Made by a program: the position numbers and the translations under genes. The notes below the pieces were generated by a model. That model was given only the letters and a program-made list of their open reading frames with translations. It searched no databases and had not been told where the DNA came from. Shown here piece after piece: positions 1 to 20,710 of a stretch of 61,691 nt of DNA. The stretch's first letter is position 1. Every line of letters begins with the position of its first letter. The DNA comes from an uncultured Methanosarcinales archaeon (GTDB taxonomy: Archaea; Nanobdellota; Nanobdellia; Woesearchaeales; CAZPJY01), in contig CAZPJY010000001.1 in assembly GCA_964587045.1 (NCBI GenBank), positions 62,001 to 123,691 on the forward strand, read 5' to 3'.

Positions 1-3000
1 CTGTTCGGGGAGAGCGCCACAGATTCTGTGACGGTCTCGTACGATCCGCTGTCCCTCCCCATCATCCCTCTGCTGAATGCGGTCCAGAGCCCTGTCCCAG
101 ACCCCCACGTGTTCGTGTCTGGCATGGTGACATATGTAGGGGGCGCGCCGGTCGCGGGAGGCGAGGTGGAGGTTTTCCTGAACGGCAGGTCAGCGGGCCG
201 CGCCTCGCTGGCTGATGACGGCAGCTTCTTTGCCCAGGTCACCTTGCGGGCCGACTACAACCTGGTGGAGGTCAGCGCGTACGACGCAGATGGGAACGGG
301 CCCAGCCAGATGTCACAGGCAAGGGAGATCCTCTGGGTGCAGGACGCGCCGAGGCTGGCTGAGCTATCGCCAGAAGAGGGCGCAGTGCTGAGGACGCTGA
401 CCGAGGCCACGGCAGTCCTGACTGAGGTGGACAGCGCCGGCATCAACCAGGCACTCTCGATACTTTCGGTTATAGATTCGGCCGGCAACTACGTCGGAAG
501 CCTGATGAACAGCATCGCCTCGGGTGAGAACGTGACCCTCGAGCTGCCGCTGTGGGAGGTGCTCGACGACGGGGTGTACACGGTCGAGGTCATGGCGGCA
601 GACAACATACAAAACATCAGGAGATATGTGTCTACTTTCAGGATTGACACCTCAGCGCCCGTCATACATCTCAACTACCCGTCAGAGGCCGTCGTTTACA
701 CCACCACCCCCTCCCTCGACGTCTACGGCAGGGTCGAGACAGACTACCCGCCGGTAGAGGTATACCTGGGCAGGGAAGGCGCGCTCGAGCCGGCGGTCGT
801 CATGGACAACGCCTTCGGCGACACCGACAACGACGGACTCACCAACTACAGGGAGAGCGTCCTTGGCACCAACCCTGCGCTGGCGGACTCAGACGGGGAC
901 GGCTTCCTCGACGCGGGAGAGCTGACCTCGGGGACGGATCCTCTGAACCCGTCATCCTCTCCTGCGGATGCGGACGGCGACGGGATGGACGACGAGTGGG
1001 AAGCACTGCACGACGCTTACGACCCTGTCGCTGACCAGGACGGCGACGGACTGCTCAACCGCGGTGAGTACGGCTACGGATTCGATCCCAACGACCCGAC
1101 GTCGTATCGCGAGTCGAAGGGTAGCGGCATGCCGAACGAATTCGCCTCGACCGTACAGCTTGAGGAGGGTGAAAACACGGTGGTGATCCGCGGAGTTGAC
1201 GGTCTGGCCAACAGCGGGGAGAGGAGGCTCACTGTCATACTGAAGCCTCAAGGAAGCTCGATGAGAATCATCAGCCCGTCGCAGGGCTATGTGAGCGTCT
1301 ACCCCGATATCACCGTTGAGGGGGTCTACGATGACGATTTCATCGACCGCATAGAGCTGTTCAGGGACGGCGAGCTCCTGGCGACGGCTTTGCCGTACGA
1401 CGGAAGCTTCGTGTTCGGCGTCAGACTGGACGCTGGGGAGAACCACCTGACCGTCAGGGAGCGCGACCTGTTCGGTGAGACGCTTGAGGACAGCGTTACC
1501 GTATTCTACGACGACACCCCGACTGAGGCTGAGCTGGTAGGCGACAACCCCTACTTCACGCGCGCCTCCAATATCGAGATATCAGGCGCGATAACGAGCG
1601 TGCGCGAGTACTACGCATGGGTGCGCCACACCTACCTGGGGCAGTCAGGCCTGACCACGTCGTACTATCCGATCCAGACCTCCGGCCAGTTCGCGGTTGA
1701 AGTGCCGTTGTACGAAGGAGAGAACCTGGTGGAGGTCAGGGTAAACGACTCCCTCGAGATAACCTCATCTGGGGTCCTGCACATAGTCCGCGACACCACG
1801 CAGCCCGAAGTGAGGGTCACGGCGCCGGAGGACGGCGACATAGCATCGGTCTCGACCAGCTCGCAGTTGGGAGGTGTGGCAGGGACCTATGAGGACTACT
1901 TCCAGAGCCTGACTGACTTCGACCAGGTCGACACTATAGAGAGGATCCAGTTCTTCAGGAACTCCGAGCTCATCGCGACAGAGCTTTCGCCATACAACAA
2001 CCTGTTCTTCCAGGACATGCCTCTCAGGGAGGGGCCCAACAGGCTCGAGGTGCACGGCCTGGACATGATGGGCAACATCGGGATGGATGAGGTGACGGTC
2101 GAGATCGACAGGACTCCCCCGACCATCGGCGTCTCCTCATTGACCGGCGACCCCGGCAGGGTCGTTGAGGGAGATGGCACGGCCTTCTTGACCAACAGCC
2201 AGTCTGTCGAGGTTAGAGGGTACTACATCGATGAGAACATCGGCACCGTCACTGTCGGCGATACGCAGGCCGACCTGAACGGAGGGACGTTCAGCGCGTC
2301 GGTCAGGCTGCAGGAGGGCGACAATGAGGTGGCCGTTCTCGCAAGGGACCTCGCCGGCCTGGAAAGCTATCCTGTCACCCTGAGCATATTCCTGGACTCC
2401 ACGCCACCAACGGTTTCCATTGTCGAGCCGTCCTCTCTCAGGACGACCGACGACACGCCTTACTTCGCGGCGGCGACCGATGAGGAGGCCCAATGCTCCA
2501 TAACCTACTTCGCGCAGTACCTTGACGACTACTTCGAGCAGCCCATGAGCACCCAGGACGGGCTCTACCACACCGCGACCGCAGACTACAGGCTTCCCTC
2601 CCAGTTCTTCGGCAACGCGGAATCTGATTTCACCATAACATGCACAGACGAGCTGGGCAATGAGGGTTCGGAGCATTATGACATAGTGGTGGACGGCATG
2701 GCGCCGCAGCTCACCGGATTCGCCTCCACCAATGGAATCCTCCAGGAGTCAACCCATTACAGGAAGAGCTACATGGTGCTAGCTGACTCCATAACCCAGC
2801 TGACCGTCGACGCCTCAGAGCCTGTCAGGTGCAGGTACGGGCCCACGACCGACTACAACTCGATGACTCCTTTCGCGGACGGCGGACTCTACGAGCTCCA
2901 CCCGCGCAGCGGCTACATACTGCTGGACAACCGCCAGAACTACACTTATTACCTCACGTGCGAGGACCTGTCTGGCCAGAGGTCCGAGGCAAGGATCATC

Positions 3001-4293
3001 GATCTTCAGGTCTTCATCGACATGGCCATCCAGCTGTACAACGTGCGGCCGACCGGTTACATCAACGATCCGACGCCGACTGTTACTGTAGAGACGGCTT
3101 GGGATGCGCAGTGCCTCCTGCAGAAGCACTCGCCCCAGTTCGTCAGCTACTGGTACGAGACCAACCGCGGCCTGACCGAGGCGGTGAACACCCAGATGTT
3201 CAAGGAGAAGGAAGGCAACTACTGGAGGCACTCCATCACCCTGGAGTCAACTGCGGACCCAAGCGAGCACACGCCGCTCGAAGAGGACGGCAACTACAGG
3301 TTCACAGTCGCATGCTTTGACCCGTTCGGACAGCTAGATCCGGGATCCGTCGACATAAACTTCACCATCGACACGGTCATCGAGCCGCCGGTCATCGCAT
3401 ACCCGCATGACGGGGACATTTTCACTCACTCATACATAGAAGTCAACGGCACCGCTGAGAGGTACTCCACAGTGAGGGTGTACGTGCAAAACCAGCTCCA
3501 GGACATACTGCGCCTGCAGGAGACCGTCGAGCTCGACAGCGACGAGTTCGCTGTCTTCATAGGGCTCAAGGAAGGCGACAACACGATAATCGTCAGGTCG
3601 ATCGACAGGGCGGGGAACTTCGCCGATACCAACATCACCGTCGGGTTCACCAACCTGGGGCCGCGTGTTGACATCGCTGTTGAGCCGGCAGGAGGCGTAG
3701 TCAACGAGCTAGATGACATAGTCGCCAGGTTCACGCCCAAGCGTGGCGATCCGGGCACCCCTCTGGACCTGTCGAGGACGGAGATCATATTCACGAGGAT
3801 ACGCGTGAATCCGCATATTGACGTACCCGGAGAGACTGTGATAAACGCGTTCGACAGGATGACATACACCCCGACCGAGCGGCCTCTCACGACCAAGGGC
3901 ACGTACAAGATAGCGGTCATTCCGCGGGACGCGCAGGGCAATGAGGGCGAGGTCAAGGTCGTGAACCTAGGGATAGATCCTCTGGCTCCTGAGATAAGCG
4001 TAGAGTCTCCGACAGTTGACAGGACACGGGACCCGCTGGTGGTGTTCTCGGGTGCGGTCTCCAGGAATCCGGACTATGCGCTGCTTATCGTCTATGACCA
4101 GTTCTTCAGGTCTGAGACCTATCTGCTCGATCTGGATAGTGAGGGAAGGTTTAATGAGACAGTGTCGCTCTCTGATGGCCCGAACTACTTTGTCATACGC
4201 AGCGAAGTGAGCGGAAACGAAGGGGAGACTCCCGAAAGGACGATCTACCTGGACAGGGTCGGCCCGCAGATAATAAGGTTCCAGATCATATAA
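1..4293 (+). CDS. Giant surface protein with tandem Ig-like domains and TSP3-like Ca-binding repeats; 5' partial
   Basis: Frame is open from base 1 (LFGESATDSVTVSYD, echoing the internal DLFGETLEDSVTVFYD). Repeated LxEGxNxIxVxAxDxxGN...VxxDxTPP Ig-like units, DxDGDG clusters at about 820-1100 and disulfide-type Ig units (TDEEAQC...CTDELGN). Confidence 0.85.
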   Translation: MFGESATDSVTVSYDPLSLPIIPLLNAVQSPVPDPHVFVSGMVTYVGGAPVAGGEVEVFLNGRSAGRASLADDGSFFAQVTLRADYNLVEVSAYDADGNGPSQMSQAREILWVQDAPRLAELSPEEGAVLRTLTEATAVLTEVDSAGINQALSILSVIDSAGNYVGSLMNSIASGENVTLELPLWEVLDDGVYTVEVMAADNIQNIRRYVSTFRIDTSAPVIHLNYPSEAVVYTTTPSLDVYGRVETDYPPVEVYLGREGALEPAVVMDNAFGDTDNDGLTNYRESVLGTNPALADSDGDGFLDAGELTSGTDPLNPSSSPADADGDGMDDEWEALHDAYDPVADQDGDGLLNRGEYGYGFDPNDPTSYRESKGSGMPNEFASTVQLEEGENTVVIRGVDGLANSGERRLTVILKPQGSSMRIISPSQGYVSVYPDITVEGVYDDDFIDRIELFRDGELLATALPYDGSFVFGVRLDAGENHLTVRERDLFGETLEDSVTVFYDDTPTEAELVGDNPYFTRASNIEISGAITSVREYYAWVRHTYLGQSGLTTSYYPIQTSGQFAVEVPLYEGENLVEVRVNDSLEITSSGVLHIVRDTTQPEVRVTAPEDGDIASVSTSSQLGGVAGTYEDYFQSLTDFDQVDTIERIQFFRNSELIATELSPYNNLFFQDMPLREGPNRLEVHGLDMMGNIGMDEVTVEIDRTPPTIGVSSLTGDPGRVVEGDGTAFLTNSQSVEVRGYYIDENIGTVTVGDTQADLNGGTFSASVRLQEGDNEVAVLARDLAGLESYPVTLSIFLDSTPPTVSIVEPSSLRTTDDTPYFAAATDEEAQCSITYFAQYLDDYFEQPMSTQDGLYHTATADYRLPSQFFGNAESDFTITCTDELGNEGSEHYDIVVDGMAPQLTGFASTNGILQESTHYRKSYMVLADSITQLTVDASEPVRCRYGPTTDYNSMTPFADGGLYELHPRSGYILLDNRQNYTYYLTCEDLSGQRSEARIIDLQVFIDMAIQLYNVRPTGYINDPTPTVTVETAWDAQCLLQKHSPQFVSYWYETNRGLTEAVNTQMFKEKEGNYWRHSITLESTADPSEHTPLEEDGNYRFTVACFDPFGQLDPGSVDINFTIDTVIEPPVIAYPHDGDIFTHSYIEVNGTAERYSTVRVYVQNQLQDILRLQETVELDSDEFAVFIGLKEGDNTIIVRSIDRAGNFADTNITVGFTNLGPRVDIAVEPAGGVVNELDDIVARFTPKRGDPGTPLDLSRTEIIFTRIRVNPHIDVPGETVINAFDRMTYTPTERPLTTKGTYKIAVIPRDAQGNEGEVKVVNLGIDPLAPEISVESPTVDRTRDPLVVFSGAVSRNPDYALLIVYDQFFRSETYLLDLDSEGRFNETVSLSDGPNYFVIRSEVSGNEGETPERTIYLDRVGPQIIRFQII

Positions 4294-4303
4294 AGTGGTA
4301 TCA

Positions 4304-7300
4304 ATGAGAAAAGAGGTGCTCTTCCTAGTAGTGATGATGCTTCTTGTAGGTGTATCCCTCGCCGACACCTACTACCGCCAGGGCATATACTACACAAACA
4401 ACACGAGGCCCTCATTCGTGTTCGACTTCGGGGAGGAGAGCTTCGTGATCAACTCATCCCTCAAGGACTCAACCCAGGAGACCTACAGCCTGTCGCAGCC
4501 GTTGAGCCAGGATAACATCACCTTCCGCATAAACGTGACTGAGGACCTGCCGGAGGACGGGTTCACGTTCGAGGTCTTCGCAAACGACACCGTGGGCAAC
4601 ATCAACCACACGACGATAATGCTCGTGGTTGACGTCACCCCTCCCCAGCTGCTTGACATCTACCCTGGCGCCGGCGCGGTCATCGAGGACTCAACTCCCG
4701 AGTTCAGGATTCAGTTCAACGAGCCAGTGCTCACGAGCCCGCCATCGCCGCCCGTGCAGCCCTGGGGCGGGCAGATATTCCTGATCAACGTGTCCAACGG
4801 GGCTTTCCAGAGCCTGTATTTCGGCGGGCCGGACAACATGCTGTTCACGTACCTGCCGCCGTACGACATCTCCGACGGGCAGAAGAATTATTCCGTGCTG
4901 GTGTCCGACTTCTCAGGCAACCTGCTGTACCATTCACACCTTTTTGCTATAAACACGCACCCCCTCAACATTCAGCTCATCCAGCCCAGGTTCGGGGTGG
5001 CCAACGCAAGCACCTTCGATGTAGTCATATCGACGAGCGCGCCGTCGGAGTGCCGCTTCTCTTTCAGCAACGACGCATTCGCCTCGATGTCCCCTTCATC
5101 ATTCACTCAGACCGGTGCGTACCAGCACGTGATTGGGGATTTCGATTACCTTGCAAACCCCAGGGATGAGGACATCATCTACGTCAAGTGCAGGGACTAC
5201 CTGGAGATAGTCCATTCAGGGCAGTACACCCTGTCATACCTCAACGGCCCGTCTTCCCTTAACATAGACATAGACCCGAACCCGATAATCGAGTGGGACA
5301 AGACCACGACCGTGACGGTGCAGTCCATCGATGACATCCAGTGCAAGTACAGCAATGCGTCCGGGGTCTACGGCCTGATGACCCAATTCCCTGGCTATGA
5401 CGAGGACGACCGTAACGCTTATGCGTCGTACCACGAGCTGTTCATGTCTAGCCAGTTCCAGTACGTGACTGATGAGGGGCAGCATTCCTTCCCGTACAAC
5501 TTCTCCTGCATCAACCTCGCGGGCTTCGTGACCGCGCCGCAGCAGAGGACCATCTCCATGGACCTGAGCATACCGCTGACCCTCGAGGTGATAAGCCCTG
5601 AGCGCTACACGGCCAACAGGCAGATAAGCGTCAATGTCACCACCAACAAGCCCGCGGACTGCGTCTACGACAACGAATCGGTAGGCATTGACTCCCCCAG
5701 CCTGGGCGAGAGCGACTCCTATGTACACTACGTCGCAATAGGCTCCCTGCCTGACGGCGAATACGACTACAACATCGAATGCACCAAGGGCACCGACATC
5801 ATAAGGGAAGTCATCACTTTCACCATCGACACCACCCCTCCCTCAACCCCGATCATCGATGACAGGAACTTCTCCTGCGACACGACCTATCTGGAGGCTT
5901 ACTGGGAGGCCTACGACAACGAGTCAGGCATCGACCATTACGAGTACATGGTAGAGGACTCGAACGGGAACGAGTTCATCGGCTGGCTGGAGACCGACGA
6001 CGACGACGCGCAGCTTAGGTACCTCAACCTGACCGACGTGAAGTACTACTGGCGCGTCAGGGCCATAAACAGGGTGGGGGTGCCTGGGGAGATAGGGACC
6101 AGCAGGGGAGTCACCATCGACCCGGGGGCTCCGCAGTGCAGGGAACAGGTCCCTCCAGTGGGTACGTTGCTTGTCACTTACGACTCGTTCGGCCAGGCCC
6201 AGGTCGAGATACTCTGCCAGGACGCAGGTAGCGGGTGTGCGGCGAACTCCACGCGGTACGACTTCGTCCCATACGGCCTGCCTTGCAGCCCCAGCATACC
6301 CTACGTGGGGCCGTTTAAGCTGACGCAGGACGCTGTCGTGTGCTGGGCGGTATATGACAACGCCGGAAACGAAGGCACCGGGAACAGGAACGTGACCGTC
6401 GAGGAAGGCGGGTTTCCGTCGGATTCCTGCTCGAACGGCGCCCTGGACATGGGAGAGAGCGACGTCGACTGCGGGGGTCCCTGCGAGCCCTGCATGGCAG
6501 GTTCCGCATGCATTGACAGCAGCGACTGCGAGTCCCAGTTCTGCGATGAGAACGTCTGCGTCCAGCCTGCCTGCGATGACGGCGTGATGAACGGGGACGA
6601 GACCGATGCGGACTGCGGGGGAAGCTGTCCTGGAAAGTGCGAGATTGACGAGGCCTGCATAGTCGATGAGGACTGCATGAGCGGCGTGTGCACCGACGGG
6701 GTCTGCGTGCCTCCGAGCTGCACCGACCGGAGGCTCAACCAGAACGAGACCGACGTGGACTGCGGCGGCGAATGCCCCAAGTGCGACATCGGCAAGAACT
6801 GCATGACGGACCGCGATTGCGACTCGGACTACTGCGAGCTGACAGAGGCCAAGTGTGAGGACTACATGCTCAAGGACTCAGACGGCGACGGCATGCCAGA
6901 CTACTGGGAGATAAAGTACTACCTGAACCCTAACGATCCCTCTGACGCGGACCGGGACGACGACAACGACGGCCTGACTAATCTCGACGAGTTCGAGTTC
7001 GGCACCGACCCGACCAATCCCGACACTGATGACGACGGCGTCTCTGACGGAAGGGAGGTCTCGGAGGGAAGCGATCCCAACGACCCGTACGACAAGCCAG
7101 AATCGAACCTACTCAATCTCATACTGGTAATCATTGGAGCTTTGCTTTTGGCTGGAGGGGCTGTTTTCCTGTTCCTTCACAGGAGGCAGAGGAATGAGGC
7201 AGCAAAGCTCGCCAGGGCGGCGATGCCAGCGCCTTCAACCAAATCCTCTGCCCGGGCGATAAACATCCTGCGCCAGCACCCCCACGTCTCGCGTGAGATG

Positions 7301-8356
7301 AGCGAGACCCAAAAGAAGATGGACGAGGCCTTCAAGCAAAAGAGCCTCGAGAAGAGCGAGCAGAGGCGCAGCCTGTTTGACGTCTTCTCTCCCAGGAAGG
7401 AGGGTGAGGAGAAGCCTTCCGAGGAGAAGAAGGAGAAGGAGGAGAAGAAGGGCAAGAAGCTCGATGAGGGCATCGATGAGGAATGGATAGACATCGACAT
7501 CCTATCAGGCAAGAAGAAGCCGGAGAAGAAGCCTGCCCAGGAGAAAAAGAAGAAGGAAGAGGACGGCACCTTCGGAAAGCTCGCGGGCCTATCCAAGAAG
7601 AAGGAGAAAGAAGACCTCTTCGGCAGGCTCGACAAGCTGGCCAAGCCCAAAGGCGAAGAGGACCTCTTTGGCAAGCTGGGGAAGCTCTCGAAGCCCAAGA
7701 AGGAGAAGGGTGACCTTTTCGGCAAGCTCGACAAGATCAACAAGGAGAACGTGGACCAGACCAAGAAGAAGATAGACAGGGTGAGGAGCCTCAAGAAAAA
7801 GAAGAAGGGACAGGCGCACACCCACATATTCATCTACGTGCTCGCGATAATTATCATGTCCCTCGTCATAGGCTACGGCTATAATGCTGTGGCGGGTTTC
7901 CGCCAGCAGGCGGACGAGGTGGTTTACGTCAAGTTCAAGGCTGAGCTGTCCAAGATGGTCACCAAGATGGGTTCTGAGTACAAGTCTGTGGTCAAGACCC
8001 AGATGGACGTGCCTACCAAGTACGGAAAGATATGCTTCATACAGAGGATCGACCCTGCAATCCAGGTCTTCACCAGATGGGATGAAGACTTGTGCGATGG
8101 GCACAGCGCTCCTGTCCCGGATGAGCCGCTGGTCTGCGACAGCTGGTTCGACGGCCTGACCAACCGGATGAGGACGGATGTCAGCGACAACGTCTTCCTG
8201 CTGGAGGACCTTTCGGGCGACGCTTTCTTCGTGGACAAGATCGCGGTAAAGCCGGCCACTCCCGGTCAGCATTTCCTGTGCGTCGACGTCGTCGGGGGTA
8301 AGATAAGGCTACAGCTTCAGGGGGAGGGCGATGTCACGCGCATCTCCACGTGGTAA
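4304..8356 (+). CDS. Large membrane-anchored surface protein (signal peptide, Ig/FN3-like, Cys-rich and TSP3-like repeats, TM helix, Lys-rich tail) with a C-terminal pilin-like domain
   Basis: MRKEVLFLVVMMLLVGVSLA signal peptide; FN3-like YYWRVRAIN; three DxDCGG repeats; DSDGDGMPD repeats; TM LILVIIGALLLAGGAVFLFL; then KKKGQ plus hydrophobic helix near 7800. ATG 4304 preferred over GTG 4295. Confidence 0.85.
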   Translation: MRKEVLFLVVMMLLVGVSLADTYYRQGIYYTNNTRPSFVFDFGEESFVINSSLKDSTQETYSLSQPLSQDNITFRINVTEDLPEDGFTFEVFANDTVGNINHTTIMLVVDVTPPQLLDIYPGAGAVIEDSTPEFRIQFNEPVLTSPPSPPVQPWGGQIFLINVSNGAFQSLYFGGPDNMLFTYLPPYDISDGQKNYSVLVSDFSGNLLYHSHLFAINTHPLNIQLIQPRFGVANASTFDVVISTSAPSECRFSFSNDAFASMSPSSFTQTGAYQHVIGDFDYLANPRDEDIIYVKCRDYLEIVHSGQYTLSYLNGPSSLNIDIDPNPIIEWDKTTTVTVQSIDDIQCKYSNASGVYGLMTQFPGYDEDDRNAYASYHELFMSSQFQYVTDEGQHSFPYNFSCINLAGFVTAPQQRTISMDLSIPLTLEVISPERYTANRQISVNVTTNKPADCVYDNESVGIDSPSLGESDSYVHYVAIGSLPDGEYDYNIECTKGTDIIREVITFTIDTTPPSTPIIDDRNFSCDTTYLEAYWEAYDNESGIDHYEYMVEDSNGNEFIGWLETDDDDAQLRYLNLTDVKYYWRVRAINRVGVPGEIGTSRGVTIDPGAPQCREQVPPVGTLLVTYDSFGQAQVEILCQDAGSGCAANSTRYDFVPYGLPCSPSIPYVGPFKLTQDAVVCWAVYDNAGNEGTGNRNVTVEEGGFPSDSCSNGALDMGESDVDCGGPCEPCMAGSACIDSSDCESQFCDENVCVQPACDDGVMNGDETDADCGGSCPGKCEIDEACIVDEDCMSGVCTDGVCVPPSCTDRRLNQNETDVDCGGECPKCDIGKNCMTDRDCDSDYCELTEAKCEDYMLKDSDGDGMPDYWEIKYYLNPNDPSDADRDDDNDGLTNLDEFEFGTDPTNPDTDDDGVSDGREVSEGSDPNDPYDKPESNLLNLILVIIGALLLAGGAVFLFLHRRQRNEAAKLARAAMPAPSTKSSARAINILRQHPHVSREMSETQKKMDEAFKQKSLEKSEQRRSLFDVFSPRKEGEEKPSEEKKEKEEKKGKKLDEGIDEEWIDIDILSGKKKPEKKPAQEKKKKEEDGTFGKLAGLSKKKEKEDLFGRLDKLAKPKGEEDLFGKLGKLSKPKKEKGDLFGKLDKINKENVDQTKKKIDRVRSLKKKKKGQAHTHIFIYVLAIIIMSLVIGYGYNAVAGFRQQADEVVYVKFKAELSKMVTKMGSEYKSVVKTQMDVPTKYGKICFIQRIDPAIQVFTRWDEDLCDGHSAPVPDEPLVCDSWFDGLTNRMRTDVSDNVFLLEDLSGDAFFVDKIAVKPATPGQHFLCVDVVGGKIRLQLQGEGDVTRISTW
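6427..6856 (+). repeat. Three Cys-rich repeats (C-x-[ND]...E[ST]DxDCGG-x-C...C...DC-x-S-x2-C)
   Basis: CSNGALDMGESDVDCGGPCEPC, CDDGVMNGDETDADCGGSCPGKC and CTDRRLNQNETDVDCGGECPKC in the translation. Confidence 0.85.
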
Positions 8357-10819: not shown

Positions 10820-10825
10820 ACGAGG

Positions 10826-10833: not shown

Positions 10834-10834
10834 C

Positions 10835-12508: not shown

Positions 12509-13357
12509 ATGAACCGCAAAGGATTCTCTGAGAGCGTCCTTAAGGGCATGGTGCTGGCCCTGATAATATTCGTCATCCTCCTGCTCCTGTACCACACGAT
12601 CTTTGATTTCACCAGCGCCTATGTCTCACACATGGAGTGCAAGGAGAGCGTCAAAGCCGCCGCAGCCCTCAGGTTCAAGGGAACGAGCCTCATGGACAAT
12701 GTCAAATGCCCGACGACCTATGAGAGGATAACCTCAAGCAAGCCTGATGAAATCAAGATGGAGCTGGCCAAGTACATGTTCATGTGCGGCAGCACTTTCT
12801 ACGATGAAGAAGGCAAGATTATGGACATCTTCATGAACGAGGACGAACGCTTCTGCGTGATATGCTACGAGATCGATTTTTCCCATGAGGGTGTTGAGCT
12901 TACTGACATGGGGCGTTTTTTCATGGAGACAAACATCCCTAAAAAGCTGAATCCAGGCAGTGAGCCCGTCACTTTCGGGTCATATTTCCTTCCTCCCGGG
13001 ACTGAAGAGAGGGACATATACTTCCCCCCGACCTCTGATCAGCTAACCACGGACCACCCACTCGGGATCGTGTTCATACTGGACAAGGATGCGCATCTGA
13101 GCCTTCTCAGGAGATTCGCCACATTCGCGGGGATAGGTGGGGGCACAGCTGCAGCGGCTTTGGTGGTGGGAAGAGTAGTGACCCAAGCCCCAGTACCCCT
13201 TCCTGTGAGTGCGTTCATTTTCGGATCGGCACTGGCTGCAGGGGCTGCATCCATACCATCCTACGAGGATGCCGACCTCTGGGCGACCATCGTCGCATGG
13301 CCGTATTCTGAGATAGGGCAGCTCAACTGCACATATATGCCATCAGAGCAGAGCTAA
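12509..13357 (+). CDS. Pilin-like protein, paralog of 11498-12508
   Basis: MNRKG/FSESVLKGMVLALIIFVILL; shared Cys spacing and LDKDA motif; hydrophobic GIGGGTAAAAL...ALAAGAA segment. Confidence 0.75.
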   Translation: MNRKGFSESVLKGMVLALIIFVILLLLYHTIFDFTSAYVSHMECKESVKAAAALRFKGTSLMDNVKCPTTYERITSSKPDEIKMELAKYMFMCGSTFYDEEGKIMDIFMNEDERFCVICYEIDFSHEGVELTDMGRFFMETNIPKKLNPGSEPVTFGSYFLPPGTEERDIYFPPTSDQLTTDHPLGIVFILDKDAHLSLLRRFATFAGIGGGTAAAALVVGRVVTQAPVPLPVSAFIFGSALAAGAASIPSYEDADLWATIVAWPYSEIGQLNCTYMPSEQS

Positions 13358-13397: not shown

Positions 13398-13553
13398 ATG
13401 GACAGCAAAGGGCAGCTTACCGAGCAGCTTGGGAAATGGATTCTCATGATAATCGTCCTGATGGTCATTCTTATAATCATAGGACTGCTGAGAGGCAACA
13501 TGTCCAACCAATGGGAGGCTCTCAAGAACCTGCTCAGCTTCGGTGGGGGATAG
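13398..13553 (+). CDS. 51-aa micro-pilin-like protein (not in the ORF track)
   Basis: Translated by hand: MDSKG/QLTEQLGKWILMIIVLMVILIIIGLLRGNMSNQWEALKNLLSFGGG; next gene starts 1 nt after the stop. Confidence 0.8.
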   Translation: MDSKGQLTEQLGKWILMIIVLMVILIIIGLLRGNMSNQWEALKNLLSFGGG

Positions 13554-13554
13554 C

Positions 13555-14160
13555 ATGACTGGCAAGTACCTGCTGGCACTGATAGTGATGGCTGTGGTGC
13601 TCGTGATAGCGGGCGTCATCAACACCGCACCCTTTGTCAAGATATTCCGCACCGCATTCCCCGAGCTGAGCCCTTACGACTATGATGAGATCTCCGATAA
13701 CTTCATAAGCATAATAGAGACTCAGCCTGAAGAGGTCGCAATATTCCCGTACGCGGTTGATGACTGGTACGGCATCGACCAGGACATCGACTGTGAATAC
13801 GGCGAGTGCACCGTTATAATATACTTCGACAAGCAGGTAGACGAGACCAAAGTGAACCAGGTCATGAAGATATACAAGGAGGCCGACGGATGCGCTGGAG
13901 GGACCGATGAGGAGTCAGACTTCACGCTGGTCCACCCAAGGGACTTGAAGGTGAAGAACGAGAAGGGGGGCATACTGTCGAACATAGAGCTGACCTTCCC
14001 TGAAGAGTGCACTGGAGCCACCTTCTTCGGAAGGCCTGGGGCCAAGGACTACATCATCAGGTTCGATCCCAACCTCCCGTTCAGCAAGCCTGAGGTCTCG
14101 GAATCGCAGTCTCTGCCCATCAACAAGGACACAGCCTTGGTCAAGTTCAGCATAGGGTGA
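13555..14160 (+). CDS. Membrane-anchored/secreted hypothetical protein (Ig-like)
   Basis: ATG 13555; N-terminal hydrophobic helix without a class III motif; acidic beta-rich body. Confidence 0.65.
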   Translation: MTGKYLLALIVMAVVLVIAGVINTAPFVKIFRTAFPELSPYDYDEISDNFISIIETQPEEVAIFPYAVDDWYGIDQDIDCEYGECTVIIYFDKQVDETKVNQVMKIYKEADGCAGGTDEESDFTLVHPRDLKVKNEKGGILSNIELTFPEECTGATFFGRPGAKDYIIRFDPNLPFSKPEVSESQSLPINKDTALVKFSIG

Positions 14161-14164: not shown

Positions 14165-14419
14165 ATGAAGAAGGCCGACATGACACTATCCACCATCGTA
14201 AAGGCGATTCTCGTCCTCATAGTCCTGGGGATACTCATCTTCATACTTGCAAGATACACAGGCATATTCAAAGGCGGCATCGAGCAGCCCTGCGAGCCTC
14301 CGGGCAGCTGCCAGTCCACCTGCCTGGGCTACCAGACTCCGGAAGGCGAGATGACGGTCCAGACCCCGAGCAACTGCCAAAACGGCGTCTGCTGCATGCC
14401 TGTCTCAGAGGTGAGCTGA
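14165..14419 (+). CDS. Small pilin-like protein with six-Cys domain
   Basis: MKKA/DMTLSTIVKAILVLIVLGILIF; C-x5-C-x3-C-x17-C-x4-CC. Confidence 0.8.
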   Translation: MKKADMTLSTIVKAILVLIVLGILIFILARYTGIFKGGIEQPCEPPGSCQSTCLGYQTPEGEMTVQTPSNCQNGVCCMPVSEVS

Positions 14420-14420
14420 G

Positions 14421-14699
14421 ATGAGGAGATCCGAGATGACTCTCTCTACCGTTGTCAAGATGGTGCTAATACTGGTGGTGCTGGCCATCCTCCTGTTCTT
14501 ATCGTACAGGTACCTGCTAAAGGGCACGCAGGACCAGCTCAATCCCATCGAGCGCCTCACCTCAGCCAGGTCGTGCTGCGTCAGGCACTGCATGGGAGAG
14601 GTTGAGCCGACAGAATGCGGCCCACTGATAGGCTCGAACGGCGAATACAACTGCAACTGCGCGAACGGCGACGTCGAGAAGAGAGTGGTAAAGCCATGA
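14421..14699 (+). CDS. Small pilin-like Cys-rich protein
   Basis: MRRS/EMTLSTVVKMVLILVVLAILLF, paralogous N-terminus to the previous gene; six Cys in a different order (CC first). Confidence 0.75.
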   Translation: MRRSEMTLSTVVKMVLILVVLAILLFLSYRYLLKGTQDQLNPIERLTSARSCCVRHCMGEVEPTECGPLIGSNGEYNCNCANGDVEKRVVKP

Positions 14700-15322
14700 T
14701 CCGCTCCAAGAGGGCATTCAGGCTTTCCCTTACAGAGACCATCGGTCTCGTGCTCGTCGCGCTGATAATCGTCTTCACACTGGGTTTTTGGACCAAGCTG
14801 TACGGCATATTCTACGGATCAGAGCTCGACGAGTACTCAGAGGCCAGCTTCAACCGCTTAACTACTAAGGTCCAGGAGATGGTCAGCAATCCTGACGAGA
14901 ACATAAACGAGGTCACTTTGGTCTACTACATCAAGAACGGCCTCTCCCTGCGGGGCTTCAGCGCCGAGGAGAACGTGATCAGGGACACCTGCCTTTCCAA
15001 CGAGGACTTCCACAAGCCTTCCCTCTGCGGCGCTTCGAAGGGCTGCTTTTGCATCTGCGACGAGGAGGAGACGGTGTGCAAGGACGACTTCCGCTGCGTG
15101 GCCATCGACGGCGTCACCAAGATATCAGGGTACAACGTTGACTACAACCTAGGGGACGCCAGGAGCGGCACCACAGGGACCAACTACCTCATAATATACG
15201 GGGACTGCGACGGCGGGGGAGGCGGGCCCTTCCAGACCCGGACCCTGAAGGTCACAAGGATAAAGGACAGGGAAGACCCGGACAAGTACGAGCTGGTTGT
15301 GGAGGCTTCCCCCCTCGAGTGA
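14696..15322 (+). CDS. Class III signal peptide (pilin-like) Cys-rich protein
   Basis: Start re-called at ATG 14696 (ATGA overlap); SKRA/FRLSLTETIGLVLVALIIVF; CFCIC motif. Confidence 0.75.
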   Translation: MIRSKRAFRLSLTETIGLVLVALIIVFTLGFWTKLYGIFYGSELDEYSEASFNRLTTKVQEMVSNPDENINEVTLVYYIKNGLSLRGFSAEENVIRDTCLSNEDFHKPSLCGASKGCFCICDEEETVCKDDFRCVAIDGVTKISGYNVDYNLGDARSGTTGTNYLIIYGDCDGGGGGPFQTRTLKVTRIKDREDPDKYELVVEASPLE

Positions 15323-15366
15323 TTACCGAAAGTAATTTATAGGCTCCCCACCTTTTTTTATAGTCG

Positions 15367-16395
15367 ATGAGGGGCAAGAGAGGCAATATCCTAAATGAAA
15401 TGTTCTTCTCCATATTCCAGCTAGTCATCCTTGCATTCATTCTCATCGGACTGAAGGTCTGGGTAGACAACGTAGTGAGCGACGAGACGTTCGAGAGGAA
15501 CTTCATGGCACGGGACGTCGCATTGCTGATCGACACCGTTTACACGGCTCCGGGGAACGTCGAGGTGGACTACCCACAGAACACGCGCCACCTCAACTTC
15601 ACCTTCGAGCCCAACCTGGTGAGGATCACCCATCCTGACGAGACGGCGTCGGTGCCTCCTGCGGTGTACCCGTTCGCCGAGGACCTGGCGGTGCCCTTCG
15701 CCTACTCCTCAGTGGCTCCGGAAAGGCTTACGAACGACGAGCTGGGACCATCGGTCAAGCTGATGGCAAGCAAGATCAACAACCGCGTGGCCGTGAGCGA
15801 CAAGCCGGTCTCCCTCACGTCCAGGGCCTCCAAGCTCGTGTGCCTGCAGGCGTCCACCCGCGACCCGAACTGGCATAGCAAGGAGGTCTACTACGACCCG
15901 GGGCACGGTGAGGGCAGCGGGATAAACAGGGAGGCCCAGTTCGCCAGGCTGGTAGGGCTCGAGCTCCAGAACGAGATCCCTGGCATCAGGAGCACCAAGG
16001 GCAGCTTCATAACCCAGGCCGACACGCCGCTTGAGAGGAGGCTAGACGCGATAAAGCATGCTGCTCTGGTGGTGAGCGTCCACCAAAACGACGGAGGCGA
16101 GAACACGAACGTGATATTAGCGTACATACCTCCGCTGTCGCTGGAGAGCCAGAAGCTGGGATGCCTGATCCTCAACAGCATCCTGGACGAGCTGCCTGAT
16201 GAGTTCTCGAGGGCTGACCTGATACCGGCCGATGACATACCGCCAGATGACCCTATGCAGATCATCGACACAGGGATACCGTCGGTGCTGCTCGAGGTAG
16301 GCAACGCCAACAGGGACACCTTGCCCGACGCTGCGGCTGTAGCTGCCGGCATCGGCAGGGGGGTCTCGGCATACTTTGGGGTGACTGCACGTTGA
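15367..16395 (+). CDS. Pilin-like protein fused to N-acetylmuramoyl-L-alanine amidase (Amidase_3) domain
   Basis: GKRG/NILNEMFFSIFQLVILAF N-terminus; amidase motifs YYDPGHG, RE, TPLERR, VSVHQND and PSVLLEVGN (His/Glu/His Zn ligands plus catalytic Glu). Confidence 0.8.
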   Translation: MRGKRGNILNEMFFSIFQLVILAFILIGLKVWVDNVVSDETFERNFMARDVALLIDTVYTAPGNVEVDYPQNTRHLNFTFEPNLVRITHPDETASVPPAVYPFAEDLAVPFAYSSVAPERLTNDELGPSVKLMASKINNRVAVSDKPVSLTSRASKLVCLQASTRDPNWHSKEVYYDPGHGEGSGINREAQFARLVGLELQNEIPGIRSTKGSFITQADTPLERRLDAIKHAALVVSVHQNDGGENTNVILAYIPPLSLESQKLGCLILNSILDELPDEFSRADLIPADDIPPDDPMQIIDTGIPSVLLEVGNANRDTLPDAAAVAAGIGRGVSAYFGVTAR

Positions 16396-16898
16396 AGCGG
16401 GGCATGATGTCATTCAACATCGTTTCGTGGGTGCTCAGGATACTCTTCGTGCTGGCCGGACTGCTGGCTGTCGTGCTCCTGGTCCGCATGTACCAGATTG
16501 ATTCCGTGGACATCAAGGACATACACGCGGAGATCGTCAAGAACCGCGTACTCTACGCCCCCTCGGGCGTGATGCACGCAGACATGGAGACAGGCCGCTC
16601 GTACCCGGGCCTGCTTGACCCAGCCAGGTTCAACGACTCGGTCCTGTCAGGCACCATCAACTACGGCACCAAGAGCAGAACGCTCTCTGCCAAGCTGTAC
16701 TACAGCGACAATCAGGGAGTCCTGAGGGAGGCTTACACGAACAAGACCTGGTACCGCCGCTGGGAGCCAGCGGTCGGCGTTGCCGGGCCCGGCGGGGCGG
16801 TCGAATACATGTACAGGCTGCCTGTTGTGGTGCTCAACGAAACCAGCGGGGATTACCCAACAACGCTGTACATCAGTGTCATAATACCGAACAGCTGA
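16392..16898 (+). CDS. Class III signal peptide (pilin-like) protein
   Basis: MKRG/MMSFNIVSWVLRILFVLAGLLAVVLL; TTG start overlapping the previous stop. Confidence 0.75.
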   Translation: MKRGMMSFNIVSWVLRILFVLAGLLAVVLLVRMYQIDSVDIKDIHAEIVKNRVLYAPSGVMHADMETGRSYPGLLDPARFNDSVLSGTINYGTKSRTLSAKLYYSDNQGVLREAYTNKTWYRRWEPAVGVAGPGGAVEYMYRLPVVVLNETSGDYPTTLYISVIIPNS

Positions 16899-16900
16899 AA

Positions 16901-17443
16901 ATGAGAGGAAAGAAAGGATTCATATCTGACGCGATGGCGGATTTCTTCGCCTACCTGCTCTTTTTTGTAGTGGTGCTGCTGTTCTTCTTCCTTTTCAAGT
17001 ACGAATCCAACAACATCACCAACGAGGTCTCGCCTGAGATCACCACCACGGACTACAGCTACTACCTCACCAGCATGATGTACCTTCCTGTGGAGGAGGA
17101 CGTCGACTTAGACGGCACTCCTGAAAGGATGCAGCTGGGCGAGTTCCTGTCATACTACTACATCTACCCGGAGAGGTACAAGGACCGGGTCGAGCAGATC
17201 ATAACGGAATACATCGGGGCGAGGTCCGGAACAGAGCTGTCATGGGACGTTATTATCTCAGCTCCCGATAGGGACACGCTCAGGATCACGAGCAACAACA
17301 TCGTCCAGGACCTGATCCTCGAGCCGGGAGAGGTGTTCGGAGACCAGGAGATGATCGTGCCTCTCATAGCAAATCATGGTGTGATGAGCGTGAGAATCAA
17401 GCTGTATACCCTCGAGCTGGTGACGCCAGGGGTGATATTATGA
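16901..17443 (+). CDS. Class III signal peptide (pilin-like) protein
   Basis: MRGKKG/FISDAMADFFAYLLFFVVVLLFFFLF. Confidence 0.75.
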   Translation: MRGKKGFISDAMADFFAYLLFFVVVLLFFFLFKYESNNITNEVSPEITTTDYSYYLTSMMYLPVEEDVDLDGTPERMQLGEFLSYYYIYPERYKDRVEQIITEYIGARSGTELSWDVIISAPDRDTLRITSNNIVQDLILEPGEVFGDQEMIVPLIANHGVMSVRIKLYTLELVTPGVIL

Positions 17444-18524
17444 ACAGGAAAGGCTCATTCTTCAATNNNNNNNNNNCTTCGTGATAATCATAACTAGCAT
17501 ACTCATCTTTGCGTATGTCAGCCTGACCAGCAAGTACAAGATGTACGGCGAAGACGGCGAGCAGCGCCTTATCGGGGACCTGCAGTTCAGGGTGCTGTCC
17601 AGCTATCAGGAAGGGGAGAAGGCGCTGCAGTACGTTGACCGCTCAGCCGGGTTCGCAGCACTCCAGGCGGCCTACACGCTGGGCCAGGACGGCGGTTTCT
17701 TCCTGCCAGACTCGGGGACTGACCACAATCCGTGGGACATGTCAGACTGCGGGGAGTACGGGAGCTACAACTTCTGGAACAACAAGTCGGCCGACTGCTA
17801 CCCAGAAGACTTCAAGTCCAGCTACGTAAAAGACCTGGACAGGGAGCTGAACAGCTACATCTCTTTGTACTCTGCGGCCCTGATCCCGGTAAACAACTAC
17901 GTATATCTGGTGTCTGACAACGGCAGCGCAATCAACCTGACAGGGATCGCGCTCAGGCCGATCGACATCAACATAGGAAAGCAGATCCTCTTTGCCACTT
18001 CGCTGATACACGGGGAGGGAATCTTCATATGGCCAGTCGACGATTCATCACCCCTCCACAAGCTGATCACCTCTTGCTTCGGGCTGCGCAACTGCGTGCG
18101 CTGCGACGACCAGACCCACGACGCCGTCGACATCGACGGGACCACCGGCGATCTGATACTCGCTGCGGCGGATGGGGTCGTCACCCGTGTCGGGGGCACG
18201 TACAACCTCGTTGCCCTCGAGCACGCGGACGGCTACGAGACCTACTACCTGCACAACAACAAGCTGGAGGTTGAGGTCGGCGACGAGGTCAAGCAGGGCC
18301 AGGTCATCGCCAGGATGGGCGGCTGGGGGAGGACCGGCCCCAACCACTACGGCGACCACCTGCATTTCGGCATCAAGAAGGACGGGCAGTGGCTCGACCC
18401 GCTGGACCCGAGGTACGGCTTCTACGACATCGAGAAGCTGGGCCTGACATTTTCGCATGACGCGAACTGCTGCTACGCCCCAGAGCAATACCAGTACTCG
18501 GACCTAATGACGTGCTTGACATGA
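17440..18524 (+). CDS. Pilin-like protein fused to M23 family Zn endopeptidase; spans an assembly gap
   Basis: True start ATG 17440 (MNRKG/SFFN, GGGGTGA RBS, ATGA overlap), then a 10-N gap. M23 motifs WP, HDAVDI (HxxxD), AAADGVV, YYLH, VKQGQVIA and HLHF (HxH). Confidence 0.85.
17467..17476. other. Assembly gap (10 N)
   Basis: N run inside the hydrophobic segment of the M23 gene; the true length is unknown. Confidence 0.95.
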
Positions 18525-20710
18525 GACTTGCGATAATAATCGGACTGTGCATCCTGCTCGCGCCTGTGGCGTTTGGGCAGTACGTTCAGGAGGACCCGAC
18601 TGAAAACGACCTCGCATGCGACACGACGGTGCACTGGGCCTCTGACATCACCGTTCCGGACATCTGGGAAGAGCTGCAGGCGTACGACTCGCCCCTATCA
18701 CAGGCTGATGCGACGTACATATTCACCAAAGGCACGACGATGGGGATCGATCCCGCTTTCCTGATGGCGGTTTTCCGAATGGAGAGTGAGTACGGTACCG
18801 CAGGCATAGCCATGTCTACCCACGGGGTCGGCAACGTACGTCACACCCAATCGTGCGCGTTCGACTACAAGGGATTCTGCGGCTACCACACCTGGCAGGA
18901 TTCGATCGACGCGTGGTACGAGCTAATCGCAGGCCCGGTGTACATGAGCGGAGGGCTGACGACGGTGGAGGCAATCATCCCCAAATACGCGCCTTCGACC
19001 GAAAACGACGTCGAGAGCTACATCAGCTTCATCAGGGATTATTTCTCATACTATAGGGATGACATGCCGCCGCGCTGCTCGGCCGGGGACTCTGTGGGAC
19101 TGTACCAAGCGGTCCCGTCATTCCGCCACGAGCTGGACTACACCCTCGACATATACCAGACCCTCATCGAGGAGAGCCAGGAGCTCATCGAGGAGTGCTC
19201 GTACGAGGATGACTTCAAGGCCTGCGTCGACCGATACCTTGCAGGGTTCAATTCGGGGACTGAAGACTACACTTGGGGCTACTCGTGCGACGAGGGTCCT
19301 GAGCAGGTCTTCAATTACATACTTGAGCAGTACAGGGACTGCCTGAACGCCTTTTCCAACTACTGCGTGTGCGCAATCGACCTCGCCCAGCCTGAAGGGC
19401 GAGGTGTCGGCGGCGAGTACGAGATAAACATAACCCAGGTTGGGGACAAGACCAAGTTCGAGCTGGTCGATGACGGCATCCAAGTCGACATCAAGGAGGT
19501 GGTGAGCTCCTATTTCAGCTTGGCGAACGGCGAGCTGAACGACCCGCGGAACGCGCACAACATGCTGACCCTGTTCACCGAAGGCACCCTAAGGCTGAAC
19601 TACGTCGGCAGCAGCCCGCAGTCCGTGAGCATCAGCGGGTTCGATCTGGTCATCGACGGCACTTCTACCAGCTACGCAGGGCTCGGTACCAACGTTCTCT
19701 ACTTTTTCAGGAACAACAGCGTAATGGGACTCGTGCCGGCGAGCAAGTACTCTGCGCACGAGTGGAAGAACCTGCCCCAGTGCGTGATCAACAAACGCAA
19801 CTACCGCTTCTGCGTGAAGGACGAGGCCCACAGCTTCATGATCTACGACCCGGTAACGGGCGACCGCTCGTTCTCGTCCCCTGACATCAAGTTCGCCCTT
19901 CACATCAGGGACCTCGTGCCGCCTCCGCCGCTGGAAGACCTGGTGCTTATGGACGCGCCGAAGCGCGAGACCGGCTTCGTGGCCTCATGGCAGGAGTCAA
20001 ACGAGACCGACGTCGTGCTCTACTCAGTGTATACTGACGACGGCTCTTTCTCAGACGTCAGGTCGGCCTCGGACTCCTATTCGTTCGACCCGAGGCTAGT
20101 CGAGTGCGACCTGCGCTCCCTTGACCTGACATCGGGCGAGCTGCAGCCGCCGTACGTCTACGAAGCTGTCGACTTGGAAGGCGATGAATTTGAGGTCCAG
20201 CTTGAGATGGAGAAGCCATGCCACGCAGGGGACAGATATTACATGATGGTGCCGGCAGAGGAGGAAGGAACGGTCTACGCAGCTGTCACCGCGACCGACG
20301 ACTCAGGCAACGAGGACCCGTCTGTGCACGCCTTGAGCGTGAGGGTGGAGGACGACTTGGGTCCGTCCGAGGCCACAGGCATCGACTTCTATTCCCAGCC
20401 ATCCAACCCGAATCTCATCAACGTGGTCTGGACCATTCCGACGACGAACGAGGACGGGAGCCAGCTGACTGACCTCGCATCCTTCACGCTGTCGCACATG
20501 GGCGCACCATTCAGCTTCTCGGCAGCGCAGAAGATCGTCGTGCAGAGGATGCAGACATCGCCTCCGACGCCGAGCGAGCCCACCAGTCCCATCCAGGTGA
20601 GCTACATCGTGAGCGCTCCGGGACGGCCCGTGCCTTACTGCGTGCACGTGGCGCCGGCTGACGATGCGGGCAACGAGAACAGCGAGCTGACACAAGTGGT
20701 CTGCAGATAA
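18521..20710 (+). CDS. Secreted protein with glucosaminidase (GH73)/lysozyme-like domain and C-terminal FN3-like domains
   Basis: Sec-type signal MRLAIIIGLCILLAPVAFG; GIDPAFLMAVFRMESEYG (catalytic Glu), Y.TWQDSI, GLTTVEAIIPKYAP; AVTATDDSGNE and VAPADDAGNE FN3-like ends. Confidence 0.75.
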   Translation: MRLAIIIGLCILLAPVAFGQYVQEDPTENDLACDTTVHWASDITVPDIWEELQAYDSPLSQADATYIFTKGTTMGIDPAFLMAVFRMESEYGTAGIAMSTHGVGNVRHTQSCAFDYKGFCGYHTWQDSIDAWYELIAGPVYMSGGLTTVEAIIPKYAPSTENDVESYISFIRDYFSYYRDDMPPRCSAGDSVGLYQAVPSFRHELDYTLDIYQTLIEESQELIEECSYEDDFKACVDRYLAGFNSGTEDYTWGYSCDEGPEQVFNYILEQYRDCLNAFSNYCVCAIDLAQPEGRGVGGEYEINITQVGDKTKFELVDDGIQVDIKEVVSSYFSLANGELNDPRNAHNMLTLFTEGTLRLNYVGSSPQSVSISGFDLVIDGTSTSYAGLGTNVLYFFRNNSVMGLVPASKYSAHEWKNLPQCVINKRNYRFCVKDEAHSFMIYDPVTGDRSFSSPDIKFALHIRDLVPPPPLEDLVLMDAPKRETGFVASWQESNETDVVLYSVYTDDGSFSDVRSASDSYSFDPRLVECDLRSLDLTSGELQPPYVYEAVDLEGDEFEVQLEMEKPCHAGDRYYMMVPAEEEGTVYAAVTATDDSGNEDPSVHALSVRVEDDLGPSEATGIDFYSQPSNPNLINVVWTIPTTNEDGSQLTDLASFTLSHMGAPFSFSAAQKIVVQRMQTSPPTPSEPTSPIQVSYIVSAPGRPVPYCVHVAPADDAGNENSELTQVVCR

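Follow-up and report, generated by a model that had tools for sequence, protein, structure and literature searches.

For Woesearchaeota and Pacearchaeota that encode large murein-like lytic transglycosylases, published work proposes that they attach to or break down bacterial cell walls and live as episymbionts or predators of bacteria (PMC8204110, PMC9723730). Here we describe a gene block of the same lineage, and with the same inferred bacterial target, in which homologues of murein (peptidoglycan) hydrolases are encoded among pilin-like proteins. The block occupies positions 1-20710 of a 61,691-nucleotide stretch of archaeal DNA (hereafter the window; G000:C1:62001-123691), which comes from a 1.6-Mb genome in 50 contigs that is rated 100% complete and 0.53% contaminated. 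In the published cases GH23 domains are found in giant proteins, and the available text of the two papers makes no mention of pili, pilin, amidase or M23 (PMC8204110, PMC9723730). The two SLT genes of our source genome lie on contigs other than that of the block.

The locus combines known kinds of system: pilins of modular build, archaeal filaments that have been functionalised, and wall hydrolases of archaea. In the modular pilins PilB and PilC of Streptococcus sanguinis, a pilin module carries a grafted functional module, which gives a simple filament additional functions (PMC8179133, PMC9934059). The arrangement described here is similar, with a class-III-type N-terminus and a pilin module bearing a graft; however, PilB and PilC are bacterial, their modules are described as adhesive and their role in the pilus has been studied experimentally, whereas the archaeal murein hydrolases reported here are known from their genes. 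The bindosome and other class-III-signal binding proteins offer a second likeness, as non-pilins proposed to functionalise a type IV filament (T4F) base machine encoded at another locus, but bindosome cargo consists of solute-binding proteins linked to ATP-binding cassette (ABC) transporters rather than murein hydrolases (PMC3047682, PMC13705601). Binding proteins with class III signals are also the cargo proposed in a 2026 survey of type IV filaments in archaea; the terms peptidoglycan, hydrolase, enzym- and defensin are absent from its main text, though its supplements may list such proteins (PMC13705601). Finally, Woldo and Danwoldo are archaeal M23 peptidoglycan hydrolases that kill bacteria, found in a screen that required a wall-binding domain (PMC12352652). 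They share with our locus an archaeal M23 enzyme aimed at bacterial murein, but as described they carry tandem PG_binding_1 domains and are patchy in distribution, whereas the M23 domain described here is borne by a pilin-like carrier, within a structural locus that is near-universal, and has no wall-binding domain. An initial annotation of this DNA knew of no description of such a pilin-fused locus with three activities. The idea of bacterial wall degradation by Woesearchaeota is already published (PMC8204110, PMC9723730), but on the locus itself the annotation is borne out. We found no published description of a pilin-fused wall-hydrolase cluster in open-access papers or bioRxiv, and the terms sought for such a locus are absent from the text of PMC6349945.

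The block comprises 19 genes (g01-g19), all on the + strand, with neighbouring genes overlapping by 4-26 nucleotides (nt) or separated by gaps of no more than 185 nt. They encode two giant proteins with immunoglobulin (Ig)-like and TSP3 repeats, 17 class-III-like units, of which 16 are clear, and three homologues of murein hydrolases. Coordinates, strand and Pfam repeats thus agree with the initial annotation in describing a co-oriented, tightly coupled locus with two giants. Its figure of "about 18" class III units becomes 17 by our count (g03-g18, which make 16, plus a unit at the C-terminus of g02), the presence of such units being upheld. It also had the block end in three hydrolases, but these are not adjacent: two Cys-free pilin-like genes, g16 (16392-16898) and g17 (16901-17443), sit between the amidase gene g15 and the M23 gene g18.

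The M23 homologue g18 (17440-18524), a pilin-like carrier followed by the peptidase domain in a gene that spans an assembly gap, matched the M23 family (PF01551) at 87 bits against a Pfam cut-off of 28.7. Compared with solved structures, it matched 37 M23 sequences at E <= 1e-3 (best 3.3e-14). The motifs HxxxD and HxH, which we take to be the zinc and catalytic motifs of M23, are present as HDAVD and HLH and align with those of 6jmx.

The amidase homologue g15 (15367-16395) consists of a pilin-like carrier (residues 1-160) and an Amidase_3 domain (residues ~170-340). By itself, g15 scored 17.4 bits (E 0.0049) against Amidase_3 (PF01520), below the cut-off of 27; a phmmer search against solved structures gave no match, and a word-indexed search returned g15 only. 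A profile from an alignment of g15 with 14 full-length relatives of the same order matched 13 solved amidase sequences (best E 7.5e-19), and 9 of the 15 alignment members matched PF01520 (best 2.1e-22). The AlphaFold model of g15 (predicted local distance difference test, pLDDT, 82.9) retrieved 14 Amidase_3 structures at Z 15.7-19.5, with the next match at 11.1, and Foldseek agreed; superposition on 4rn7 gave a Z of 19.5 and a root-mean-square deviation (rmsd) of 2.3 over 160 aligned residues. All four catalytic positions, the predicted His-Glu-His zinc ligands and the catalytic Glu (H180, E189, H239 and E310, with roles assigned by alignment), are present, so that the H-E-H-E set is intact. 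The fold is shared with CwlD (7rag, 4rn7), CwlV (1jwq), LytH (7tj4) and AmiB/AmiC (Z 17-19.5, rmsd 2.0-2.8, 154-163 residues), and the four catalytic positions are shared with the solved Amidase_3 enzymes. Identity to these enzymes is nevertheless only 18-24%, and the g15 enzyme, unlike them, stands behind a pilin-like helix and a beta domain.

The third homologue, g19 (18512-20710), is a secreted protein of 732 amino acids (aa) with a signal peptide, a GH73-like domain (residues ~30-190) and a conserved C-terminal region (~190-670). Searched alone against PF01832 (cut-off 30.2), g19 reached 17.3 bits over its full length and 20.9 bits over the domain, and a single-sequence search of solved structures gave no match. 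PF01832 was matched by 7 of 8 g19 family members (best 7.3e-11), and the family profile matched the Clostridioides difficile glucosaminidase 8yxk (3.7e-6) and LytB (3.5e-4). An invariant Glu-Ser in the family, with the putative catalytic Glu, aligns with the ES of LytB. The model of the GH73 domain (pLDDT 77.2) superposed on LytB with Z 13.1 and rmsd 5.8 over 147 aligned residues, and on 8yxk with Z 13.0 and rmsd 2.5 over 123. Later fold matches were AtlA, a type VI GH73-like effector, TM0633, a clostridial autolysin and FlgJ; among the top eight fold matches, the best seven are GH73-type glucosaminidase entries (Z 8.8-13.1). The Foldseek match was marginal, with a best E of 1.4e-3. Judged by homology, and as initially proposed, g15, g18 and g19 would cleave the amide, peptide and glycan bonds of murein, respectively. 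The three domain assignments made initially (Amidase_3, M23 and GH73-like) are borne out by hidden Markov model (HMM) and profile searches, by the folds and by the catalytic residues that are kept.

We defined a class-III-like N-terminus as a short basic leader, then G, A or S, then a hydrophobic stretch of about 20 residues (KD, Kyte-Doolittle, 2.3-3.65). By this pattern match, 16-17 cluster proteins have a putative class III signal. The doubtful case is g11 (13543-14160; 205 aa), which has a hydrophobic N-terminus without a clear basic-G/A motif. Pfam and NCBIfam pilin models matched none of the cluster's pilin-like proteins. In the cluster open reading frames (ORFs) of relatives (20 loci), 173 sites fit xKK[G/A/S] plus a hydrophobic stretch; the pattern required a basic and a small residue and put no constraint on the flanking KK or on position +1. 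The +1 residue is Gln at 76 of the 173. The pilin-like proteins include g03 (8331-9410; 359 aa), to which no family could be assigned and which comes closest, in the Atlas, to clusters of hypothetical Nanobdellota proteins; g04 (9392-9952) and g05 (9949-10479), both with a class-III-like N-terminus and both syntenic in relatives; and g14 (14696-15322), with 208 aa and 8 Cys. The products of g09 (11498-12508) and g10 (12509-13357) each combine a class-III-like N-terminus with a Gly/Ala-rich hydrophobic C-terminal region, have transmembrane (TM)-like segments at residues 221-239 and 229-247, respectively, and are paralogues (hhalign probability 99.9%). The N-terminal ~34 residues of g04 and g05 are likewise related (hhalign probability 92.7%). 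In profile-profile comparison, cluster families other than g09/g10 share only their first ~35 residues, which is the pattern expected of pilins. The model of g15 begins with a helix at residues 4-60 (~55 residues), followed by a beta domain at 65-144 and then the amidase; judged by predicted secondary structure only, residues 1-160 are pilin-like. The genome encodes a single Peptidase_A24 prepilin peptidase (contig C13, 53.2 bits). From these patterns we consider it likely that the cluster proteins undergo class III processing; that they are incorporated into a filament is a proposition to which we give even weight for and against.

Five of the pilin-like proteins are very small. The mini-pilins g06, g07 and g08, in tandem at 10577-11349, and the mini-pilin-like pair g12 and g13 (14165-14699) have 80-93 aa, and in each a strongly conserved N-terminus is followed by a head with six Cys. 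In g06 these Cys are spaced C-x6-C-x3-C-x12-C-x5-CC, similar to what we take to be the beta-defensin framework. An alignment of 30 mini-pilin sequences shows no variation at four of the Cys and almost none at the other two. Weak Pfam matches to defensin families were found for AtDEF-like (4 of 30 sequences, best 5.9e-5), Defensin_beta (4 of 30), Defensin_beta_2 (2 of 30) and big defensin (2 of 30); the mini-pilin profile retrieved nothing significant from solved structures, the best match being gallinacin-11 at E 0.3. The EppA-type (Epd) pilins of methanogens are also very short and have a Gln after the G/A cleavage position. The mini-pilins share their small size and +1 Gln, but end in a head with beta-defensin-like spacing of six Cys, and no Epd-type assembly genes were identified beside them.

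Gene order was compared in 20 relatives, in each across the 20 kb that surround its g15 homologue. Allowing for locus ends, the order g02-g19 was recovered in all 20, which identifies the block as a conserved chromosomal locus of this Woesearchaeota-type order; a survey of synteny was among the checks that the initial annotation had proposed. Homologues of g15 occur in 110 of 151 genomes of the order (a tally that includes two genomes flagged as unpublished) and the g19 protein in 55 of 151. Homologues of g03 reach further, to 66 of 201 genomes of the class: the source genome, 25 further members of its order and 40 genomes from outside that order.

The carriers are conserved, and their cargo is exchanged. 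In a Pfam survey of 66 proteins from the 20 loci (E <= 1e-3), the slot that holds M23 in g18 (residues ~200-380) carries M23 in five loci, SLT in two, NlpC_P60 with SLT in one, Amidase_2 in one and M15/VanY in one. A 3D domain is present in two loci, in one of them on a g19-like protein instead of the g18 carrier, and in one locus SLT is found on g19. Amidase_3 fills the g15 slot in four loci (one match weak, one gene split), and M15_4 does so in one. In four loci, the g18 carrier, its cargo slot (M23 or SLT in two of them) and the g19-like C-terminal region form one protein. Altogether, 13 of the 20 loci have at least one domain of murein-hydrolase type (M23, SLT, NlpC_P60, Amidase_2, Amidase_3, M15 or 3D), and the domains that alternate in these slots from relative to relative belong to eight murein-specific Pfam families. 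Because unrelated folds that have only their murein substrate in common sit on the same carriers, we take the bacterial wall to be the target, and this is our main argument. That the target is bacterial murein appears highly probable.

Murein itself is foreign to the source genome. We found no match to Mur_ligase_M (positive in 13 of 14 control genomes) and none to the transpeptidase of penicillin-binding proteins (PBP; positive in 10 of 14), which, in a genome rated 100% complete, agrees with the initial premise that the organism does not synthesise murein. Remodelling of the cell's own wall was rejected on the same grounds. A related possibility is that the enzymes act on the envelope of the cell itself or of an archaeal host, for example on pseudomurein, and open a path for the cell's own filaments. 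Bacterial flagella, secretion systems and pili do have dedicated wall-cutting enzymes, and a single Mur-ligase-family gene can be found in 62 of the 151 genomes of the order. Those matches, however, are nearly all one weak copy of ~400 aa; only G008 (three) and G109 (two) have more than one, and the source genome has neither a Mur-ligase-family gene nor a transpeptidase. Moreover, Amidase_2, Amidase_3, SLT and GH73 domains recognise murein that contains N-acetylmuramic acid (MurNAc), which pseudomurein lacks. We regard an action on archaeal envelopes as very improbable.

The genome encodes at least seven proteins of murein-hydrolase type. In addition to those of the block, a second M23 was seen on contig C26, and two SLT lytic-transglycosylase proteins on contigs C2 (a 445-aa ORF around 55470-55805, - strand, with an end that looks LysM-like by eye) and C40 (C40:3932-4489, + strand; small, with an N-terminal membrane segment). 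A 143-aa Amidase_2 of AmpD/PGRP type lies at C13:28811-29239 (- strand; 79 bits) and is signal-less; it may process imported muropeptides. This last gene suits a quite different account of the locus, in which the class-III N-termini do no more than anchor or organise a bindosome-like array of surface enzymes, much like the sugar-binding proteins with class III signals in Sulfolobales, and the hydrolases digest wall debris of dead bacteria for amino acids and amino sugars. Class-III-signal archaeal non-pilins whose base machine is encoded elsewhere are established, as far as described (PMC3047682, PMC13705601), and the present locus is also without a motor gene. Against this account, AnmK and GH3/NagZ, the usual enzymes of muropeptide catabolism, were not found in the genome. 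Canonical muropeptide recycling was accordingly rejected as an explanation.

The giant proteins also bear on scavenging. The block opens with the C-terminal 1430 aa of giant surface protein A (g01, 1-4293), an ORF that starts upstream of the window and matches Glucodextran_B (136 bits), Big_13, TSP3_bac, Big_7 and Big_6. Giant surface protein B (g02, 4304-8356) has a signal peptide, TSP3 repeats, 40 Cys, a TM segment at residues 939-957 and a K/E-rich tail. Pfam thus places Ig-like and TSP3 repeats (Glucodextran_B at 136 bits, Big_13 and TSP3_bac) in the two giants. Behind the K/E-rich tail, taken to be cytoplasmic, and in frame with it, the end of g02 (~7793-8356) encodes a fused class-III-like unit that consists of KKKKKGQ, a hydrophobic helix and ~165 aa. 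In 10 relatives the counterpart of these last ~165 aa is a separate gene with the start xKK[AG]Q; if prepilin peptidase cuts the fused unit, giant B would behave as a polyprotein. Contrary to the initial annotation, the locus does not begin at window base 1: giant A and three further giant ORFs occupy the 62 kb upstream. From the contig start into the window (C1:1-66293), ~66 kb hold four giant + strand ORFs of >8507, ~7790, 3879 and ~1924 aa, with an N gap at C1:60656-60665. As these ORFs reach the contig start, the left end of the system is absent from contig C1. All eight relatives examined upstream have a giant ORF of at least 1382 aa before the cluster (up to 5826 aa, several being cut by the locus end), and further genes upstream encode secreted proteins of large size as well as one more class-III-like protein, of 394-1073 aa. 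The conservation of giant adhesin-like genes in these eight of eight fits cell contact better than free debris.

A third account has the enzymes, perhaps together with the defensin-like mini-pilins, kill neighbouring bacteria for competition or defence, with no host relationship. Archaeal peptidoglycan hydrolases that kill bacteria, M23 enzymes of halophilic archaea, have been demonstrated, and M23 homologues are described from four Nanoarchaeia genomes (PMC12352652); the seven or more murein-hydrolase-type genes of our genome would also be in keeping with a weapon. Hydrolases that serve as weapons are, in that description, patchily distributed, however, whereas the present locus is near-universal in its order and has a fixed chromosomal position (PMC12352652). 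Its ~17 structural pilin-like proteins also far exceed what a secreted bacteriocin needs. We therefore hold a purely antibacterial weapon to be quite unlikely.

Since a 10-N scaffold gap (17467-17476) lies inside g18, directly before the M23 and GH73 domains, we also considered whether bacterial hydrolase DNA had been joined to archaeal DNA at that point by the assembly. Ahead of the gap the gene encodes a class-III-like leader, MNRKGSFFN, and beyond it the hydrophobic helix; relatives have an uninterrupted g18-type gene of the same form in the same place, with the order g17-g18-g19 recurring. Parts of 15300-20800 are matched, at >=99% identity, by public contig pieces of 150-420 nt from runs X1-X3, which are labelled salt marsh metagenome; none of them bridges the gap, which leaves this point in favour of an artefact. 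After g19 come genes for an oligonucleotide/oligosaccharide-binding (OB)-fold protein, YdjM and RadA, and their homologues follow the cluster in 15, 8 and 7 of the 20 loci, respectively. The right-hand part of the window holds archaeal core genes (RadA at 287 bits, RadB, PCNA, ribosomal S2 and an RNase J-like protein), and the Atlas neighbours of two proteins of the genome are Nanobdellota and Woesearchaeota clusters. Given the synteny with relatives, including 20 of 20 for the gene order and the matching archaeal genes after the cluster, and the contamination of 0.53%, we reject a chimera, a concern raised at the outset; an origin of the arrangement in misassembly is exceedingly improbable. 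The OB-fold gene itself (20989-22521, - strand) is inverted relative to 15 of 20 relatives and longer (510 versus ~333 aa), which suggests a local rearrangement at the right border of the block. A second scaffold gap in the window, of 100 N, lies at 48468-48567. Among the RNA datasets, none is listed as containing the locus.

Five T2SSE matches occur in the genome, none of them on the window's contig. Three of the corresponding loci (C10, C36 and C42) are of the usual archaellum or pilus type and include pilin genes. Another, C21:1082-8510 (locus L086), encodes a divergent 767-aa T2SSE ATPase (62 bits) adjoining a 754-aa polytopic protein with 7-10 TM-like segments and no Pfam match. The nearest Atlas cluster of this polytopic protein is named GspF-domain, and in the next clusters T2SSF is found in 21% and 16% of members. 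The C21 locus also encodes three paralogous 5-TM proteins of ~190 aa and has no pilins nearby. The genome G024 (complete, 774 kb), which has the cluster, contains the same C21-type locus, and its only other T2SSE-family match is a PIN/KH-domain ATPase. The N-terminal 400 aa of the C21 ATPase were found in all 151 genomes of the order, mostly at 46-62% identity (a tally that includes three genomes flagged as unpublished). On account of this co-occurrence with the cluster, we propose the C21 ATPase-platform pair as a candidate assembly machine.

Taken together, these data lead us to favour, by a narrow measure, a model in which the locus specifies a conserved surface apparatus of DPANN archaea: T4F-like, with about 17 pilin-like proteins, giant adhesin-like proteins and some murein-cutting subunits. 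Cluster proteins would enter the membrane by way of their class-III-type N-termini, a pattern that is present in the sequences, and would be trimmed by the single A24 prepilin peptidase whose gene is present. An ATPase-platform pair encoded elsewhere, for which that on C21 is the candidate, would then assemble the subunits into a short fibre or surface scaffold, probably made mostly of six-Cys mini-pilins. The g15 amidase and the g18 M23 endopeptidase would ride on it as modular minor subunits, and the GH73-like g19 would be secreted alongside. Together with the giant Ig/TSP3 proteins, such an apparatus would hold a bacterium, as host or prey, and locally open or grip its peptidoglycan. The initial interpretation, a pilus-based system that breaches bacterial walls, is in this respect partly sustained: the enzymes and their pilin-like carriers are present, and the bacterial target is strongly suggested by the eight murein-specific Pfam families; display on a pilus and an attack on living cells are plausible.

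Several results weigh against this model. The N-terminus of g19 is an ordinary signal peptide with no class-III-like start, which confines the earlier description of pilin-fused hydrolases to the amidase g15 and the M23 protein g18, with their pilin-like N-termini. Pfam recognised no murein-binding module in g15, g18 or g19, and no recognisable hydrolase domain was present in 7 of the 20 loci. No ATPase, platform or peptidase gene was found in or beside the locus, nor in the relatives' stretches (20 downstream and 8 upstream, the latter inspected by ORF length and N-terminus). The gap within g18 is not bridged by any public contig, and we know of no bacterial partner for this lineage. Finally, many relatives of the g15 carrier lack a full catalytic set. 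We searched 1.84 billion representatives with a profile of the g15 carrier alone and obtained 1724 at E <= 1e-3, of which 894 reached E <= 1e-10. The best 150 include 103 long forms and 44 consisting of the carrier only; Amidase_3 was recognised (E <= 1e-3) in 41 of these 150, with no other Pfam family among them, and the H-E-H-E set is kept in full in only 22 of the 103 long forms (MAFFT alignment; a lower bound given alignment error). Most relatives on the g15 carrier have thus lost catalytic residues, unlike the solved Amidase_3 enzymes, and the g15 of the window belongs to the minority that look catalytically intact.

From these two counts we conclude that catalysis is often dispensable on the g15 carrier, and binding may be the commoner role of the g15-type domain. 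The frequent loss of catalytic residues on one and the same carrier suggests a testable shift between cutting the wall and only gripping it. It also does not fit a digestive role, and with the points given above we consider the scavenging array an unlikely account, if a less remote one than the weapon. Living bacterial partners and dead material are, as objects of the surface apparatus that we favour, about equally well accommodated by the evidence.

Two other features of the window lie to the right of the block. An 820-aa fusion protein (38585-41047, + strand) joins a PMT_2/GT22-type glycosyltransferase to a DUF2334/polysaccharide-deacetylase domain and adjoins a GT2 and a second PMT_2 gene; this region is possibly an envelope-glycan module. 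At 46555-48174 (+ strand), a 539-aa protein contains a GGDEF diguanylate-cyclase domain (98 bits). Signalling by cyclic diguanosine monophosphate is, to our knowledge, essentially bacterial.

We know of no established hosts or lifestyle for Woesearchaeota-type archaea, although they are among the commonest uncultivated archaea. The locus offers a testable handle on that lifestyle, as a conserved structural locus, near-universal in the order, in which what varies is in every case an enzyme specific to the bacterial wall. Should its proteins assemble into a fibre, we know of no earlier description of a type IV filament armed with enzymes, and the fibre would be a device for attachment or feeding across domains. 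The specificity of the purified domains for wall chemotypes could indicate the bacterial partners and guide co-cultivation. More tentatively, and at a level of confidence well short of that for the apparatus itself, this DPANN class (Woesearchaeota- and Pacearchaeota-type archaea) might build an inter-domain contact organelle, in which a T4F of defensin-like mini-pilins, driven by the order-wide ATPase and accompanied by giant adhesins, carries at its tip or along its shaft exchangeable murein-cutting or murein-gripping cassettes matched to the wall of the host. If this proved true, a very abundant group would have its main hosts among bacteria and not among archaea, and the hydrolase cassette would be a readable predictor of host type.

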